A DNA stretch of 33,352 bases from an uncultured Clostridia bacterium (GTDB taxonomy: Bacteria > Bacillota > Clostridia > Lachnospirales > Lachnospiraceae): contig CANDMY010000006.1 of the NCBI GenBank assembly GCA_947385945.1, forward strand, positions 64,001-97,352. The letters are read 5' to 3'. The notes under the pieces were generated by a model. It saw only the letters and a list, made by a program, of their open reading frames with translations, had not been told where the DNA came from and ran no database searches. Shown here one piece after another: positions 5,990 to 30,629 of the stretch. The translations under genes and the position numbers were made by a program. How positions within the stretch are numbered: position 1 is the first letter of the stretch; each line of letters opens with the position of its first letter.

Positions 5990-6252
5990 GTTTCCATCTT
6001 CCTTTCTTTTTTCTGATTCCTCTCTATTATCCGAAAGCCATTTCTAACTTACTCTACCACAACCTTTTCTTTTTTTCCAGTGAATTTACGATATTTTAAT
6101 AATTTTTTCGACCATTTGTTCGAATTGTGATTTTCTTCTCCCTTTTTCTACAGAAAAATACAGGTTCTCTTTAAAATCCCCATAAAAATATCCCCCATTT
6201 TTCCCGCTTATAAAATCCCTTTCATAAACCTAACCTTAAACTAAACTCTATG

Positions 6253-6372
6253 TCAAATCGGATATTCGCAATCCGCTTCGCTGCTTGCTCATAACCTCAT
6301 CAAGGAAGTCCCAACCCACCGCTTTCGCCTTGGCGGCTTAGAAGCGGGGGACTTCCTCGATGAGGTTAAACC
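6253..6372 (+). repeat. Copy A of a modular intergenic repeat (BOX/REP-like): 5' module tcaaatcggatattcgcaatccgcttcgct(g/a)cttgctcataacctcat, then a 3' hairpin module
   Basis: Shares the 5' module with 8381-8426, 16513-16629 and 21263-21425. Shares the 3' module (caaggaagtccc ... cgccttggcggcttagaagcgggggacttcc ... gatgaggttaaa) with 16513-16629 and 21263-21425. The terminal stem aacctcatcaaggaagtccc / gggacttcctcgatgaggtt is self-complementary. Confidence 0.75.
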
Positions 6373-6394
6373 AAGATCGAATTCAACCAAAATA

Positions 6395-8380: not shown

Positions 8381-8426
8381 TCAAATCGGATATTCGCAAT
8401 CCGCTTTGCTACTTGCTCATAACCTA
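8381..8426 (+). repeat. Copy B (5' module only) of the modular intergenic repeat
   Basis: tcaaatcggatattcgcaatccgctttgctacttgctcataacct matches the 5' module of the other copies. The 3' module is absent. Confidence 0.65.
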
Positions 8427-8448: not shown

Positions 8449-8907
8449 CTACTTTTGTTCAGAATGACATAAAATATACATTTTTCCATTCTTATCTACT
8501 AACCTTAAATTTCTAACAAAACTCTCATCATCTGGAATTTTTATATTAAGTTTATGCCATTTCATATCAACTTCATAAATTAAATGATCAAACATAGTAG
8601 CACTCATAATAAACTGGTACGGTGTTATTCCCAAATTATTACTTACAATGATTGACATATGATTAAATATCAAATCACCAACTGACAATGTTACAGAATA
8701 TAAATCCCCCCATAATTTCCCACCAAACCCTGAAAATGAAACCTTACGATTTTGTGACTCTCCACCAAATTCTTCTTCTAACAATTCCTTTCCGCCTGTC
8801 CATATTGGAATAAAAGCACCTGTATCAAGTAAAGCAGTTAATCCCGATTGTAATAATACCATTGGTCTTTGCTGTTTTTTATCTAAATTTAATGTTATCT
8901 GTTTCAT
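8449..8907 (-). CDS. Retropepsin-like (clan AA) aspartic protease domain protein, paralog 1
   Basis: LLDTGAFIPIW contains the hydrophobic-hydrophobic-D-T-G-A active-site signature. The downstream Gly-rich segment FSGFGGKLWG resembles a retropepsin flap. About 45% identical to the 9439-9912 product. The start is set at the internal MKQITLNL, which aligns with the MKQFTLHL start of the paralog. Confidence 0.6.
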   Translation of the reverse strand: MKQITLNLDKKQQRPMVLLQSGLTALLDTGAFIPIWTGGKELLEEEFGGESQNRKVSFSGFGGKLWGDLYSVTLSVGDLIFNHMSIIVSNNLGITPYQFIMSATMFDHLIYEVDMKWHKLNIKIPDDESFVRNLRLVDKNGKMYILCHSEQK

Positions 8908-9438
8908 GATAACATCTCTATCATTCCTAATGAAAATGCATGATCGGATACGCAGCAGGTATGCTATCTTATATTTGGATAGTATGGGTATGTTTCTATG
9001 CAATATGGTAAGGCTATATACCTATGCTAGTAAACTGAAATATCTTTTTCAGGCTATATCGGTCTGCGAGTTTAACCATAACTACTTATACCATAAAATT
9101 CTTTGAATTTCTATTTCGGAGTAAATTTCCTACTTTCTATACTTCTGTTTTCATTCACTTGTAACATTACAAAAACATCATAAAATAATTCTCACTATAT
9201 CCTCAATATCATACTGTAACTCGAACTCAACGTGTCCTTTGTTTCTATTAACTATATTTGTTTAAATTTTATACAAATACACACCATTTTTTACTTCCAT
9301 TACATCATTTATTCTAGCTTGCTAATTCTGTTCTTGTAAAATATTTTTTTATCGATTCACAAATTTTATTTTTGTCTTAATCACCCCTCTTCCTCTTTTC
9401 ACACTCTCTAAAAAAGAAATGAAATCTTCATATTTCCT

Positions 9439-9912
9439 TTATTCTACCACAGTAAACTCTGAACTACACAAAACTTGCAATTGCCCACTTTTATTTCTAA
9501 TTTGTAAATTTCTAATATTACTTTCCTCATCTGGAATATCAACATTAAATTTCCAGTTCTTAGCATCTACTTCATATATTAAATGAGTAAACATAGTAGC
9601 ACTCAATATCATTTGGAAAGGTGAATTTTTTAAATCATTACAAGCAATGATATCTAACCTTGAAAAAATTAACCCTCCAATCATGATATTTTTTAACTCA
9701 TATAAATTTCCACTTGTTTTACCACCAAACCCTCCAAACGAAACACCCTTCTCTTTCAATGTTGCACCAAATCGAATCAGAATCCTTTCATCTGCTGTCC
9801 AAATAGGATAGATTGCCCCTGTATCCAACAATGCATAAATATTATTCCAATTTTTTAGCTCTACAATAGGTCTTGACTTTTCTTTAACTAAATGTAATGT
9901 AAACTGTTTCAT
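9439..9912 (-). CDS. Retropepsin-like (clan AA) aspartic protease domain protein, paralog 2
   Basis: ALLDTGAIYPIW (DTGA) plus the flap-like VSFGGFGGKTSG. A monomer of ~155 aa is consistent with a dimeric single-DTGA retropepsin. The ATG overlaps the stop of the upstream 87-aa ORF (TAATG). Confidence 0.65.
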   Translation of the reverse strand: MKQFTLHLVKEKSRPIVELKNWNNIYALLDTGAIYPIWTADERILIRFGATLKEKGVSFGGFGGKTSGNLYELKNIMIGGLIFSRLDIIACNDLKNSPFQMILSATMFTHLIYEVDAKNWKFNVDIPDEESNIRNLQIRNKSGQLQVLCSSEFTVVE

Positions 9913-10175
9913 TAAAAACCCCCCAGTACTCCTAACTGAAATACATTATCAGGTGTTGTATAAATGCCTATCAATGCACCAGAAGTTTCAAACTGCATCC
10001 AAGTTAATTCATCTTTCGATTTATTTGTATATTTCACAATAGCAGTTTTAATTGTTGCATCATTATCTTCTTCATACTCAACTTCTGTTAAACCAACCCA
10101 CTGGTTCGGGTACTTTTCTACTATTTGTTTCCAATCCAATCGCTCTTCCATTATATAAGTCCCCTTTCTTATCAA
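9912..10175 (-). CDS. Small hypothetical protein (87 aa) ending ...LGVLGGF, translationally coupled to the aspartic protease gene
   Basis: AAGGGG SD 9 nt before the ATG. The TAA stop overlaps the protease ATG. No recognisable family. A C-terminal Gly-Gly followed by one extra residue is noted. Confidence 0.5.
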   Translation of the reverse strand: MIRKGTYIMEERLDWKQIVEKYPNQWVGLTEVEYEEDNDATIKTAIVKYTNKSKDELTWMQFETSGALIGIYTTPDNVFQLGVLGGF

Positions 10176-10588
10176 ATTTTTTTCAATGATTCTTAAATTT
10201 ATCTTCTCAAAACTTATTTCTCTTTAGATTAAAATATTTGCAATATGTTCCTCCGCATTTCCATATACCGAAATTGTAATAAATATCTCCCAGTATAAGA
10301 CAAGTAACGTTTCACTTTCCTATATCCATTTATCTCATGAAACATAAACCTTCATATTTTATATACACATTACTATCTTTATAATCGTAGCGTCTACAAC
10401 AAAAAACAACAAAATCTTATATGAAAACAAATACTTTTTATATATCCTTTTAGAAACTAAATAACTCTACGATTTTGATATAATTATAGCAAAAAATAAC
10501 CCAAAATGCAATTTATTCTGATCGTCTAAACTAAAAAAGGCTTGATCATTTCTTCAAGCCTCTTTTTCTCTCTTACTTTACAGCAATC

Positions 10589-11770
10589 TTAACAGTAATA
10601 GCCCTCCAATATTGCAGTATGAACATACTGAGGGCTTAACGAATATCCACATTGACAGAAACTTTTATTCGCTATGATGTCAACAGACTCTCTTAAACCA
10701 TTCACCATACAACCTTTTACTGAATAAATATAATCTACTGCTTTTTCATTTCGGATCTGATAAGCAAGCCACCACTGTTCCTCTGATACAATTGACTCCC
10801 AATTTCCTTTCACTAAGTTACACTGTTCTACCAAATTTCCTTCTTTGTCATAAACATCCTCCCTGATTGGTTTAATTTTGGTTGCAATCTTCTTTTTTGT
10901 CATGGTATCTTCTATTTTAAACTTTCCATATAACAGATACCCCATATATTTTTCATTTCTAAGAACTCGGTTTACCTTAGATGCACTCCAACCCAAATCT
11001 CCTTTTGCTGTCAGCATCTTATGTTCAATCAAATAATTTGCAATTTTTTGAGTTCCCATACGCTTTGTTAAATCAGGATCGGTATATAAATCAAAAATTG
11101 TCTTAACAGTCAATCCATCAACTGGATCAATCCGAAAAGTATTATTCTTCCTATCCACAGCTTTTACATAAATATAACCAAATAACCCTGATACCACTAA
11201 TTGCCCTTTCTTTCTATAAGAAAGAACACCATTATTAACCCTTTTCGCCGTCCTCATTGACTCGCTCTGAGCCAATCCTCCATCAACTGACAAACGAATA
11301 ATATCTGTTTCGTCCATATTAAATGTCCAATACTTTCCATCCAGTATTAAAACTCCAATATCATATTCTTTTAACTCTTCAATTGTATTTAATAATTCAC
11401 GTAAATTCCTAGCAAATCTGCAAATATCTTGAACAATAATTAAATCGAACTCCCTTCGTCTGGCTGCTTCCAACATAAGCTGAAATGCTGTTCGATCTTC
11501 TATACTTCTTCCTGAGATACCCCTTTCTGTATATCGATGCCTTTCTTCAATTGTAAAATAAATATGCTCTTTGATCAAAGAATCTAAACGTTCCGCTTGA
11601 TTATGTAACGCCTGCAACTGATCTGGATGATTTGTAGATTCTCCGGCATATCTGGCAACTCTTAAAAGCCTATTTGTATTCAAGATATCATCAAATCTAC
11701 ACTCAAAAAAGAACTTTCTCATACTTAAAGACTCTTGTCTTTCCTTTGTATTTCTACTAAATATACTCAT
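10589..11770 (-). CDS. Serine recombinase (resolvase/invertase catalytic domain plus recombinase domain), atypical and probably degenerate
   Basis: Resolvase-like blocks LLRVARYAGESTNHPDQLQAL, YTERGISGRSIEDRTAFQLML and DLIIVQDICRFARN. The active-site box reads YAGEST instead of YARVST, so the conserved Arg is replaced. The protein is 393 aa with only a single CxC at the C-terminus and no full zinc ribbon. The ATG overlaps the stop of the upstream small ORF (TAATG). Confidence 0.6.
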   Translation of the reverse strand: MSIFSRNTKERQESLSMRKFFFECRFDDILNTNRLLRVARYAGESTNHPDQLQALHNQAERLDSLIKEHIYFTIEERHRYTERGISGRSIEDRTAFQLMLEAARRREFDLIIVQDICRFARNLRELLNTIEELKEYDIGVLILDGKYWTFNMDETDIIRLSVDGGLAQSESMRTAKRVNNGVLSYRKKGQLVVSGLFGYIYVKAVDRKNNTFRIDPVDGLTVKTIFDLYTDPDLTKRMGTQKIANYLIEHKMLTAKGDLGWSASKVNRVLRNEKYMGYLLYGKFKIEDTMTKKKIATKIKPIREDVYDKEGNLVEQCNLVKGNWESIVSEEQWWLAYQIRNEKAVDYIYSVKGCMVNGLRESVDIIANKSFCQCGYSLSPQYVHTAILEGYYC

Positions 11771-11904
11771 TATTCTTTACACTCCTTTACTAAATTTAAA
11801 GCCTGAATATAAGTATCATTATCTAAATATTTTTCCTCATACAACTTCTTCAAGAAAGCCAATATCTTAACCTTTTTTGTAACGATAGATTTTTTCTGTT
11901 CCAT
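11770..11904 (-). CDS. Small basic helical protein (44 aa), translationally coupled to the serine recombinase
   Basis: Internal ATG (MEQKKSIVTKK...) with a strong AGGAGG SD 8 nt upstream. The stop overlaps the recombinase ATG. The longer track ORF has no SD. Confidence 0.4.
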   Translation of the reverse strand: MEQKKSIVTKKVKILAFLKKLYEEKYLDNDTYIQALNLVKECKE

Positions 11905-12163
11905 ATAGTTTCCTCCTGAAAATAAGAAATGATAAGATACATTTATAAACTCAGGAAGTAACTCTATCCAAAATATCATCTAAGTTAATCTTTATATCTG
12001 ATAAAACTTACTGAACTTTAATAAACATCACTTCTATCAAATGATTTCACTTTATATATTTCATAATAATTTCATATATAAAAAGATCTCTTAAGCAGAA
12101 TGTTTCATATCATCACTCTCACTTTAGAGATCTTACATATAACTTTATATAATGTAGATACCC

Positions 12164-12490
12164 CTAACTATCTTTTGACGGATCAAAAAATGCACACTTT
12201 CCATTGACCACATCTGGAGAAAATAATCCTTCTCCACTATATTCTTTCTTTTTTATACAGGTCACTTCTCCTGCCTTACATAAAATCATTCGCTCACTCC
12301 CATAAAATGTAATTTCAGAAGTACCAACATTCTTAATTTTCAGACCTTGCAGTCCATCACTCCAATGATAAGGTTTGATCCCAAACAGCTTATCAAAATA
12401 GCGAAAATCAACTTCTCTCTTTTTCCAGTCTGTCACAAGATAAGAATCTTGAAATGTTCCCACATGAATATCAATAGGAATCTGATGCAC
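12164..12490 (-). CDS. Hypothetical protein (108 aa, GTG start)
   Basis: Open frame with GAGG 5 nt upstream of the GTG. No family recognised. Lies in AT-rich accessory DNA. Confidence 0.35.
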   Translation of the reverse strand: MHQIPIDIHVGTFQDSYLVTDWKKREVDFRYFDKLFGIKPYHWSDGLQGLKIKNVGTSEITFYGSERMILCKAGEVTCIKKKEYSGEGLFSPDVVNGKCAFFDPSKDS

Positions 12491-12966
12491 CTGACCTCGA
12501 CTATTTTTTAATCTTCCGTATTCCAGTCATTATGTGTTGATTGACTCATAATAAAATCTCCTTTGTTTTATAACTTTATCATATCATGTATACAAAGTAA
12601 TATCTATCCCATTTTATAAAAAATCTACTTAGAATCTATCTCTAAGTAGACTTTTCCAAACGGAATTTATTTCTGCTCCCTACCACTGCATACCCCTGAT
12701 AAACATGTTACAACGATATCAAACTTCTGATTGATCTATTGACTTTCTCTGTCTATGCAACATCTATATAAAAATCTTCAAAATATTCACGATATTTTTC
12801 CACTACTTTTCTTATTTCTTCATCTTTTGGCATCTCAATCTATCTCTCTTCCTTCCGATTGGGGATATATTACCTTTTATTTTACTATTTGAAAAAATAA
12901 GGCACGACAACTAGCGATAGACATATTTTAAGGCGATCAAACTAAGTATAAACCCCAAAAAAGCAA

Positions 12967-16512: not shown

Positions 16513-16629
16513 TCAAATCGGATATTTGCAATCCGCTTTGCTACTTGCTCATAACCTCATAGCTGCTATCGCAGCTTCACTTTCGCCTTGGCAGCTTAGA
16601 AGCGGGGGACTTCCTTGATGAGGTTAAAC
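16513..16629 (+). repeat. Copy C of the modular intergenic repeat (5' module + gctgctatcgcagc mini-hairpin + 3' module)
   Basis: tcaaatcggatatttgcaatccgctttgctacttgctcataacctcat agctgctatcgcagct ... cgccttggcagcttagaagcgggggacttccttgatgaggttaaac. Confidence 0.75.
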
Positions 16630-16833
16630 AAAAATAAAAGAAAAATTATAAAAAAGTATTTTCTATTTATAAAAAAGTACTTTCTATTTTTGAAAATATG
16701 TTGTATAATCAATTTTATTAGAGAAGCCAGATATTGACAATGATAATTCTAAATATATCTATCAATATAAAATATGAAGTCCAAATAATCCCGTTGTACA
16801 ATTTTATAATACATGACATGGAAAGGTGAGATT

Positions 16834-21107: not shown

Positions 21108-21425
21108 AAGAAAATTCGGCATCCGCTCCACTACTTCCTTATAATCCTATGCTGCTATCGCAACTTGTCAGATAGGGCTTGCACCCCACCTGACACAAGG
21201 AACTCCCCCAACCCACCACCTTCGCCTTCACGGCTTAGAAGCAGCAAACTTCCTTGATAGGGTCAAATCGGATATTCGCAATCCGCTTCGCTACTTGCTC
21301 ATAACCTCATAACTGCTATCGCAGCCTTTCAGTGGGAGTCTGCACTCCCACTGAAACAAGGAAGTCCCAGCCCGCCGCTTTCGCCTTGGCGGCTTAGAAG
21401 CGGGGACTTCCTTGATGAGGTTAAA
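21108..21425 (+). repeat. Copies D and E of the modular intergenic repeat, in tandem; D is a divergent variant, E is full-length with an extra inserted hairpin (cagtgggagtctgcactcccactg)
   Basis: D: ...atccgctccactacttccttataatcctatgctgctatcgcaac...cgccttcacggcttagaagcagcaaacttccttgatagggtc. E: tcaaatcggatattcgcaatccgcttcgctacttgctcataacctcataactgctatcgcagc...cgccttggcggcttagaagcggggacttccttgatgaggttaaaa. Confidence 0.75.
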
Positions 21426-21561
21426 AAACCAGTAAAAATTTCCACAAACCAAAAATAAATCAAAACCTAACAAAAACTCCAAAAACCTAAAGAAAAACAA
21501 AAAAACAACTCTCAAAATCCCAAAAGGAAAGCCATCATTAAGTAAATTAAGCGAAAAAGCA

Positions 21562-30310: not shown

Positions 30311-30368
30311 CTCCCCGAGTAGGGCTCGAACCTACAACCCCACGGTTAACAGCCGTGTGCTCTACCAT
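30311..30368 (-). tRNA. 3' portion (~58 nt: D-loop remnant, anticodon arm with GTT, variable loop, T-arm, 3' acceptor strand) of a tRNA-Asn(GTT) gene; no 5' acceptor or D stem, so not a functional tRNA
   Basis: Minus strand reads ...tcaatggtagagcaCACGGCTGTTAACCGTGgggttGTAGGTTCGAGCCCTACTCGGGGAg. It has an anticodon stem CACGG/CCGTG with loop CTGTTAA, a T-arm GTAGG-TTCGAGC-CCTAC and a 3' acceptor strand. The expected 5' partner TCCCCGAGT...GCTC is absent; an unrelated hairpin (tacggtatgtaaccgta) lies there instead. Confidence 0.7.
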
Positions 30369-30629
30369 TGATACGGTTACATACCGTAAATCTCTTTGAT
30401 AGAGTGTCATGCTCCAAATTACAATCGAGGGTATCTTATCATTTCTCGTGGCTACTAGCGAACTGATAACCTAACGAAGATTATGTTATCATATCTTTTT
30501 TCATTTGGCAAGAGGTAAATTATCGTTTTTTAAACTTTTTTTATATCATTTCCTCTTATACGACTATACGTATAAGTTAAATACCGGCTTATGTCTTAAT
30601 TGGTAAAGCCCTCGGTCAGCCACCCTTTA

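Follow-up and report, generated by a model that had tools for sequence, protein, structure and literature searches.

To our knowledge, retropepsin-like proteases are common in bacterial genomes and almost none of them has a known function. A 33,352-nucleotide stretch of DNA from an uncultured Clostridia bacterium of the Lachnospiraceae (contig CANDMY010000006.1, positions 64,001 to 97,352; this whole stretch is called the window below) raises the question of what such an enzyme does in a form that can be approached by comparison. A gene for a small protein, S, runs directly into the gene for a retropepsin-like aspartic protease, P-A, and a paralogous protease, P-B, is encoded close by. What is the small protein to the protease (P)? 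The S-P pair is an autonomous, mobile, translationally coupled two-gene cassette, and the comparative evidence tilts, by a modest margin over even, toward a module of the toxin-antitoxin (TA) or abortive-infection type, in which P would be a harmful effector and S its neutraliser.

The open reading frames (ORFs) that a preliminary description of this DNA had placed on the minus strand, with the signatures ALLDTGA and ALLDTGAF and with GFGGK segments, are all present (Table 1). P-A and P-B are 50% identical to each other. In P-A the motifs lie at D30-T-G-A, at a flap beginning G61-F-G-G and at ILSATMF (101-108), and P-B keeps every family-invariant residue, including ALLDTGAF and GFGGK. Three segments vary little or not at all across the protease family, namely the D-T-G triad, the tip of the flap (GFGG) and I-x-S-A-x-x-F; D[TS]G is retained in 115 of 119 intact copies from genomes and metagenomes. 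The profile searches that the preliminary description had proposed succeed at the level of the family, where PF13650 (Asp_protease_2) is matched by 41 of 46 aligned relatives (E ≤ 1, best 1.2e-6) and PF13975 by 27 of 46, but not for the window proteins themselves: P-A reaches 12.8 bits (E 0.2), under the Pfam gathering cut-off of 24.3, and the Pfam search gives no Asp_protease_2 match for P-B. Judged from these scores, the protease family is a divergent outlier of the Pfam model.

The AlphaFold model of the protease (predicted local distance difference test score, pLDDT, 88.8) shows the β-barrel fold of a retropepsin or pepsin lobe together with a flap hairpin, and the Lachnospiraceae members, at 150-160 aa, carry extra C-terminal β-strands. 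A search of PDB sequences gives no relative. P is soluble and cytoplasmic, with neither a signal peptide nor a membrane segment. The assignment of P-A and P-B to the clan AA retropepsin-like proteases, as originally proposed, is thus supported by fold, by family-wide Pfam matches and by the near-invariant DTG and GFGG motifs. There is one DTG per P chain. Since retropepsins with a single DTG per chain form their active enzyme as a homodimer, P is presumably active only in that form.

A sporulation protease was considered as a housekeeping explanation, as the preliminary description had foreseen. SpoIIGA is the aspartic protease that processes pro-σE and has a retropepsin-like catalytic domain. 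The window proteases differ from it in that they have no SpoIIGA match in Pfam or NCBIfam and no membrane domain, and no sigE or other sigma-factor gene is adjacent to them in any locus, so this candidate was set aside.

The small protein was originally described as an 87-aa product with a TAATG overlap between its stop and the start of the protease. The overlap stands, and the mechanically called ORF (9912..10175) does give 87 aa from a TTG, ending ...QLGVLGGF. However, S homologues begin at the methionine of the ATG at 10151, which lies 9 nt after an AAAGGGG ribosome-binding site; from the homologue starts and this spacing the true product is probably 79 aa long. Its AlphaFold model (pLDDT 81.5) arranges residues 1-65 in the order β-α-β-β-α-β, and residues 66-79 are coil of low pLDDT, yet these belong to the best-conserved segments of the protein, with the consensus YTTPDNVFQLGxxG over 44 homologues. 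Beyond FQLGxxG nothing is kept: among the same 44 homologues and 84 genome copies the C-termini read ...VGYFG, ...LGVLR, ...VEVHG or ...ILG, and the terminal Gly-Gly is peculiar to the window sequence. Structure comparison finds no PDB neighbour of the S fold, sequence comparison finds no PDB relative, and S belongs to no family in Pfam, NCBIfam or PHROGs. A JAB match on S itself (E 0.022) was judged to be noise. DUF5678, which we take to have a similar YxxxWVxL motif, left as its sole trace a 12-residue match (E 0.019) to one distant member, too weak to be used.

Linkage of the small ORF to the protease, which had been suggested from this one locus, proves to be conserved across homologue neighbourhoods. 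S lies directly upstream of P in every homologue context read, the two genes adjoin each other at over 100 independent loci, and a 4-nt overlap between stop and start is found in 103 of 119 intact S-P pairs. With dozens to hundreds of homologues and more than 100 adjacent loci, the pairing goes far beyond chance. The surroundings are unrelated to one another. In a Eubacterium sp. the pair directly follows prfA with no recombinase; elsewhere it stands beside nucleotidyltransferase genes, or after the relaxase gene of an integrative and conjugative element (ICE) and ahead of Fic and AbiH genes. In Selenomonadaceae it is inserted between the gene for DctM, of a tripartite ATP-independent periplasmic (TRAP) transporter, and an amylomaltase gene, with HicAB and MNT-HEPN pairs in the same region; in a distant GC-rich lineage it lies between argR and rlmH. 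Tandem S-P arrays are also seen. Natural S-P fusions were not found; two apparent read-throughs (P0111, P0134) are partial or deletion products.

The fate of the two genes differs sharply, and this asymmetry is the main reason for ranking a TA-like mechanism first. A search seeded with S, using one genome per species, gave 78 loci with 84 full-length S genes: P is intact next to 52 of them, damaged next to 20 and missing next to 12. The 20 damaged genes carry internal deletions, truncations or frameshifts in at least 17 distinct lesion patterns, and the tail motif is retained in 29 of the 32 S genes that lack a working P. In the opposite direction, a P-seeded search of metagenome contigs gave 67 intact P genes with sufficient upstream DNA, every one of which is immediately preceded by a full-length S. 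The contrast between 32/84 and 0/67 is significant (Fisher p = 3e-10); under neutral decay proportional to length, about 19% of intact P genes would be expected to lack S, and the probability of observing 0 of 67 is about 6e-7. Such one-sided loss would be expected if P were harmful without S. It argues against S as a toxin, as a substrate that is merely processed, or as a helper of a harmless enzyme.

A mechanism that would fit this pattern can be outlined. S would be translated first, with translation of P coupled to it, and would bind P and hold it inactive. The folded domain of S would provide affinity, and the tail (YTTPDNVFQLGxxG) could act as a pseudo-substrate, placed under the flaps or within the substrate cleft; alternatively, it might block dimerisation of P. 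Such an arrangement would resemble that of type II antitoxins, which wrap their toxins with disordered C-termini. Should S be lost or sequestered, as upon loss of the element or phage infection, dimeric P would be freed to cleave essential proteins of the host or the phage. In its general form, that of a harmful P neutralised by S, this proposal is given slightly better than even chances, and the comparative data favour the fallback idea of the preliminary description, that of an inhibitor or immunity partner. The more specific version, in which a widespread and hitherto uncharacterised TA or abortive-infection class uses retropepsin-like proteases as its toxic effectors and restrains them with a neutraliser of novel fold whose tail acts as a pseudo-substrate inhibitor, is put forward tentatively, at somewhat under even chances. 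Toxicity of P, binding and neutralisation by S, the part played by the tail and any action against phages are all suggested here by comparison of genes and genomes.

Several observations weigh against the neutraliser model. Both the toxicity of P and its neutralisation are read from one kind of evidence, the asymmetry of gene decay, and its two halves were drawn from separate collections, species genomes for one and metagenome contigs for the other, by motif-seeded searches, which may have led to damaged genes being missed. Covariation between S and P, computed as mutual information with average product correction (MI-APC; effective number of sequences, Neff, 48), does not concentrate its top pairs on the tail or the active site. 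Most type II antitoxins bind DNA, and no helix-turn-helix, ribbon-helix-helix or AbrB family is detected in S; this absence of known domains is compatible with DNA binding all the same. S-P modules were not found on PLSDB plasmids, INPHARED phages or IMG/VR contigs. Roughly 30 of the 78 loci from species-representative genomes lie just downstream of rho-DUF1385-prmC-prfA, a clustering that could reflect vertical inheritance or a functional link instead of mobility. Lastly, of the intact P genes in all loci examined, P-B alone lacks its own S. A strict TA model has difficulty with this unless P-B is silent or the S of the neighbouring cassette cross-protects against it.

The clustering at prfA also supports a different account, in which S is a chaperone, activator or adaptor of a non-toxic protease, possibly linked to rho-prmC-prfA and mostly vertically inherited. 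That intact P always has S would suit such a cofactor, as would the spread of the prfA-site loci over species whose prfA genes are only 73-93% identical. These loci include L020, L021, L024, L027, L028, L033, L035, L042, L043, L048, L052-L054, L077, L079, L081-L084, L086, L092, L093 and others. However, the site holds at least four S subfamilies, sometimes as two cassettes in tandem, and is for this reason read as an insertion hotspot and not as a prfA operon; it looks like a hotspot of Lachnospiraceae. ICEs carry the same pair too, and in Negativicutes and the GC-rich lineage it lies between unrelated genes; P has been deleted repeatedly and independently while S survives, and two strains of the present species differ in which P is intact. 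A cofactor or housekeeping role is accordingly judged unlikely.

The conserved tail with its small-residue end, the tight translational coupling and the loose resemblance of the surroundings of F-Q-L-G to the hydrophobic P1/P1' sites of retropepsins would also suit a precursor model. In it S would be a pro-protein, ubiquitin-like or of another kind, and P would trim its C-terminal tail and so uncover a functional or reactive end. The preliminary description had leaned to the ubiquitin-like form of this account, a split counterpart of eukaryotic Ddi1. Here the evidence goes the other way, since the Gly-Gly is not conserved, some relatives stop right at ...LG, the β-α-β-β-α-β order predicted for S is not that of a β-grasp, and no E1, E2 or JAB gene occurs in any gene neighbourhood read. 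Full-length S persists in the 32 loci that have no P or a destroyed one, which would be unexpected if S were useful only once processed. This account seems less probable still than a cofactor. Least credible of all, and very improbable, is a reversal of roles, in which P would be the antitoxin and would degrade S, the harmful or regulated member of the pair. Control of small partners by proteases occurs in other systems, and S is better conserved than P across the superfamily, as the S profile (A3) still finds the S of the distant locus L178, whose P is missed by the protease profile (A4). Yet the 32 of 84 intact S genes without functional P, together with P-less tandem S-S proteins in TA islands, would be lethal or strongly counter-selected if S were toxic.

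The state of the window locus itself can be read against its close relatives. Comparison with a sister-strain contig (L017), whose flanks are 98-100% identical and through which the source is recognised as a mouse-gut Lachnospiraceae, points to an ancestral tandem arrangement of leader-S1-P1 followed by leader-S2-P2, with the leader ahead of the second cassette a duplicate of 86-89% identity in the sister strain. The sister strain keeps S2-P2 intact, S2 ending ...DHAFSLGMIEVLS, but its P1 breaks off after some 70 codons. In the window, S1-P1 (here S and P-A) is intact, S2 has been cut to its last 13 codons, and P-B has been left without leader or translational coupling; it may be silent, or covered by S1. 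A further locus, L018 (6004-6406), carries an S chimera that joins the N-terminal part of S1 to the tail of S2 (…HVFSLGMIELLS) and is followed by only the last 36 or so protease codons. This chimera indicates that the tandem cassettes recombine with each other.

The pair also has kin in a defence database. PDC-M08 is a two-gene, unpublished phage-defence candidate in PADLOC-DB v2, without published description, mechanism or validation; PDC-x entries are termed 'unpublished candidate systems' (PMC11811056). It shares the architecture of the S-P pair: the first gene encodes a small protein (about 80-86 aa), the second a retropepsin-like one (about 127-150 aa). PDC-M08A is matched by 43 of 44 S relatives (best E 4e-7) and PDC-M08B by 7 of 46 P relatives. 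The window pair lies outside the reach of the model: S matches PDC-M08A only over residues 7-44, its N-terminal half (E 1.1e-4), and neither P-A nor P-B matches PDC-M08B, so that the locus would escape a PADLOC call. Proteases of the Lachnospiraceae are also longer and barely reach PF13650. In the distant GC-rich loci L178 and L181, S is followed with a 4-nt overlap by proteins assigned confidently by Pfam to Asp_protease_2/gag-asp_proteas, and the L178 pair matches both models well (PDC-M08A 3e-11; PDC-M08B 5e-10; its protease is a confident Asp_protease_2). These matches identify the window pair, at the level of profile comparison, as a divergent Lachnospiraceae branch of the PDC-M08 two-gene architecture. 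A module of this kind is therefore already catalogued as an uncharacterised candidate, and the window pair is a variant of it and not a new category.

The S family is wider than its association with proteases. An exhaustive search with hidden Markov models (HMMs) yields 532 clusters at 50% identity, spread over Bacillota, Negativicutes and GC-rich lineages. Many members are tandem S-S proteins in one chain (P0094-P0100, P0155 and others; also L175-L177), and the S domain is also found fused to uncharacterised domains. One of the tandem proteins, P0094, has no protease beside it; its island contains Fic and DUF4869 genes along with two MNT-HEPN pairs. In L179 (971-1666) a distant S without the tail precedes a 139-aa protein that is not a protease and matches PADLOC PDC-M42B (E 3.9e-10). 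The S domain may thus partner effectors other than the protease.

Set beside known systems, the S-P pair resembles a type II TA module. The shared features are a small upstream gene for the putative neutraliser that overlaps the downstream effector gene by 4 nt; a patchy, mobile distribution that includes ICEs, tandem arrays and TA islands, with HicAB or MNT-HEPN beside some pairs; orphan 'antitoxins' and decayed 'toxins'; and a folded domain in S with a disordered C-terminal tail. The retention pattern of type II systems, in which the toxin is never kept without its antitoxin, is seen here as well with one exception, the window P-B. The differences are that S has no recognisable DNA-binding fold and that we know of no characterised TA toxin that is a retropepsin-type aspartic protease; the literature search returned none either. 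ApRick of Rickettsia (RC1339, PDB 5c9b) is 12% identical to the window protease and is reportedly membrane-anchored and without a small partner gene, whereas the window proteins are soluble, of about 155 aa, and belong to a family paired with S. In Ddi1 a ubiquitin-like domain is joined to a retroviral-protease-like domain, but S is not ubiquitin-like, is a separate polypeptide and has no ubiquitin-system genes nearby. The literature search found no paper naming PDC-M08, nothing linking retropepsins to TA or anti-phage function, and nothing relevant on DUF5678 or Asp_protease_2. Closest to the subject is a report of a small protein with a retropepsin domain, encoded beside Sulfolobales type III CRISPR loci (PMC3973734).

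The cassette lies in an AT-rich islet, where GC is near 0.30 from about 7000 to about 13000 and rises to 0.40-0.45 in the flanks. It was described at the outset as lying there beside a transglutaminase-like protein and a serine recombinase; both identifications hold, and the islet is variable between strains. One side of the cassette holds genes for a transglutaminase-core protein (PF01841, E 2.5e-10) and an HD-domain protein; the other holds the serine recombinase gene, two small ORFs (orf69 and orf108) and prfA. The transglutaminase-like gene co-occurs with the cassette in the same species only and was treated as unrelated. Conservation of the leader upstream of S is confined to this species and near relatives, and a promoter scan of this AT-rich DNA scored no better than shuffled sequence. 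In the spacer that separates P-A from the second-cassette remnant, HMM searches found no match to S or P.

Table 1. Features of the S-P locus and its immediate surroundings (window coordinates).
Feature	Position	Strand	Remarks
Terminator-like hairpin 3' of P-B	8381..8425	-	Within one copy of the repeated intergenic element
P-B, paralogous retropepsin-like protease, 152 aa	8449..8907	-	Mechanical ORF 8449..9003; homology-supported start MKQITL at 8907
S2 remnant, last 13 codons and stop (DHAFSLGMIEMLS, then stop)	8904..8945	-	Overlaps the P-B start (ATGA)
Non-coding spacer, P-A to second-cassette remnant	8946..9438	-	No counterpart in sister strain L017
P-A, retropepsin-like aspartic protease, 157 aa	9439..9912	-	ALLDTGA, GFGGK
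S, small partner protein, probably 79 aa from ATG 10151	9912..10151	-	Folded domain and conserved disordered tail; YTTPDNVFQLGVLGGF
S-P cassette leader and probable promoter region	10152..10561	-	From the terminator hairpin 3' of the recombinase gene to the S start
Terminator-like hairpin between recombinase gene and S	10538-10561		
Serine recombinase, 393 aa, directly upstream of the cassette	10589..11770	-	PF00239 and PF07508; phrog_95 integrase E 3e-59

The serine recombinase may mobilise the cassette and is not regarded as a core component; homologues of it occur near S-P in five other loci (L019, L029, L059, L075 and L091). The protein is short, ends soon after its Recombinase domain and covers positions 83-394 of a 651-position phage integrase profile, and it may be a truncated or compact variant. 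A 1.9-kb segment (10614-12511) containing orf108, orf69 and the recombinase gene is replaced in L017 by about 600 bp of unrelated sequence between flanks that are 98-99% identical, and is thus a strain-level indel directly beside the cassette. Homologues of the 108-aa product of orf108 (12164-12490), 39-43% identical to it, lie about 150 bp upstream of S-P in three genomes with no recombinase in between (L057 5549-5845, L060 2079-2363 and L066 5539-5829). In L075 a further copy (464-739), 88% identical, is separated from the nearest S downstream of it by more than 5 kb that include a recombinase homologue. No Pfam, NCBIfam or PADLOC match was found for orf108, which is possibly an accessory gene or fellow cargo.

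Two other features of the window were noted. A repeated intergenic element is present in four copies (6252-6377, 8381-8425, 16513-16635 and 21177-21428), all of which share a near-identical core of about 45 bp (TCAAATCGGATATTCGCAATCCGCTTYGCTRCTTGCTCATAACCT); three of them extend to about 125-250 bp through a second conserved block (…CGCTTTCGCCTTGGCGGCTTAGAAGCGGGGGACTTCCTTGATGAGGTTAAA). It has no Rfam match and looks like a repetitive extragenic palindromic (REP) element or a miniature inverted-repeat transposable element (MITE). On the minus strand at 30319-30373 there is a partial tRNA-like Rfam match (29.7 bits against a gathering threshold of 29; model positions 8-63), possibly a tRNA fragment.

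For this locus, then, the idea of a split Ddi1 or ubiquitin-like system is wrong. In its place, one large group of bacterial retropepsins is given a role that can be tested, that of a toxic effector restrained by a dedicated small neutraliser, and the one-sided decay of the pair supplies comparative evidence that the database entry PDC-M08 lacks. If the proposal is true, aspartic proteases would join the effectors of TA and abortive-infection systems, with P as the first TA toxin of this class, and S would be a natural proteinaceous inhibitor of retropepsins with a new fold. An enzyme family best known from retroviruses would then have a cellular niche in prokaryotes, which would bear on the origin of the retroviral protease.

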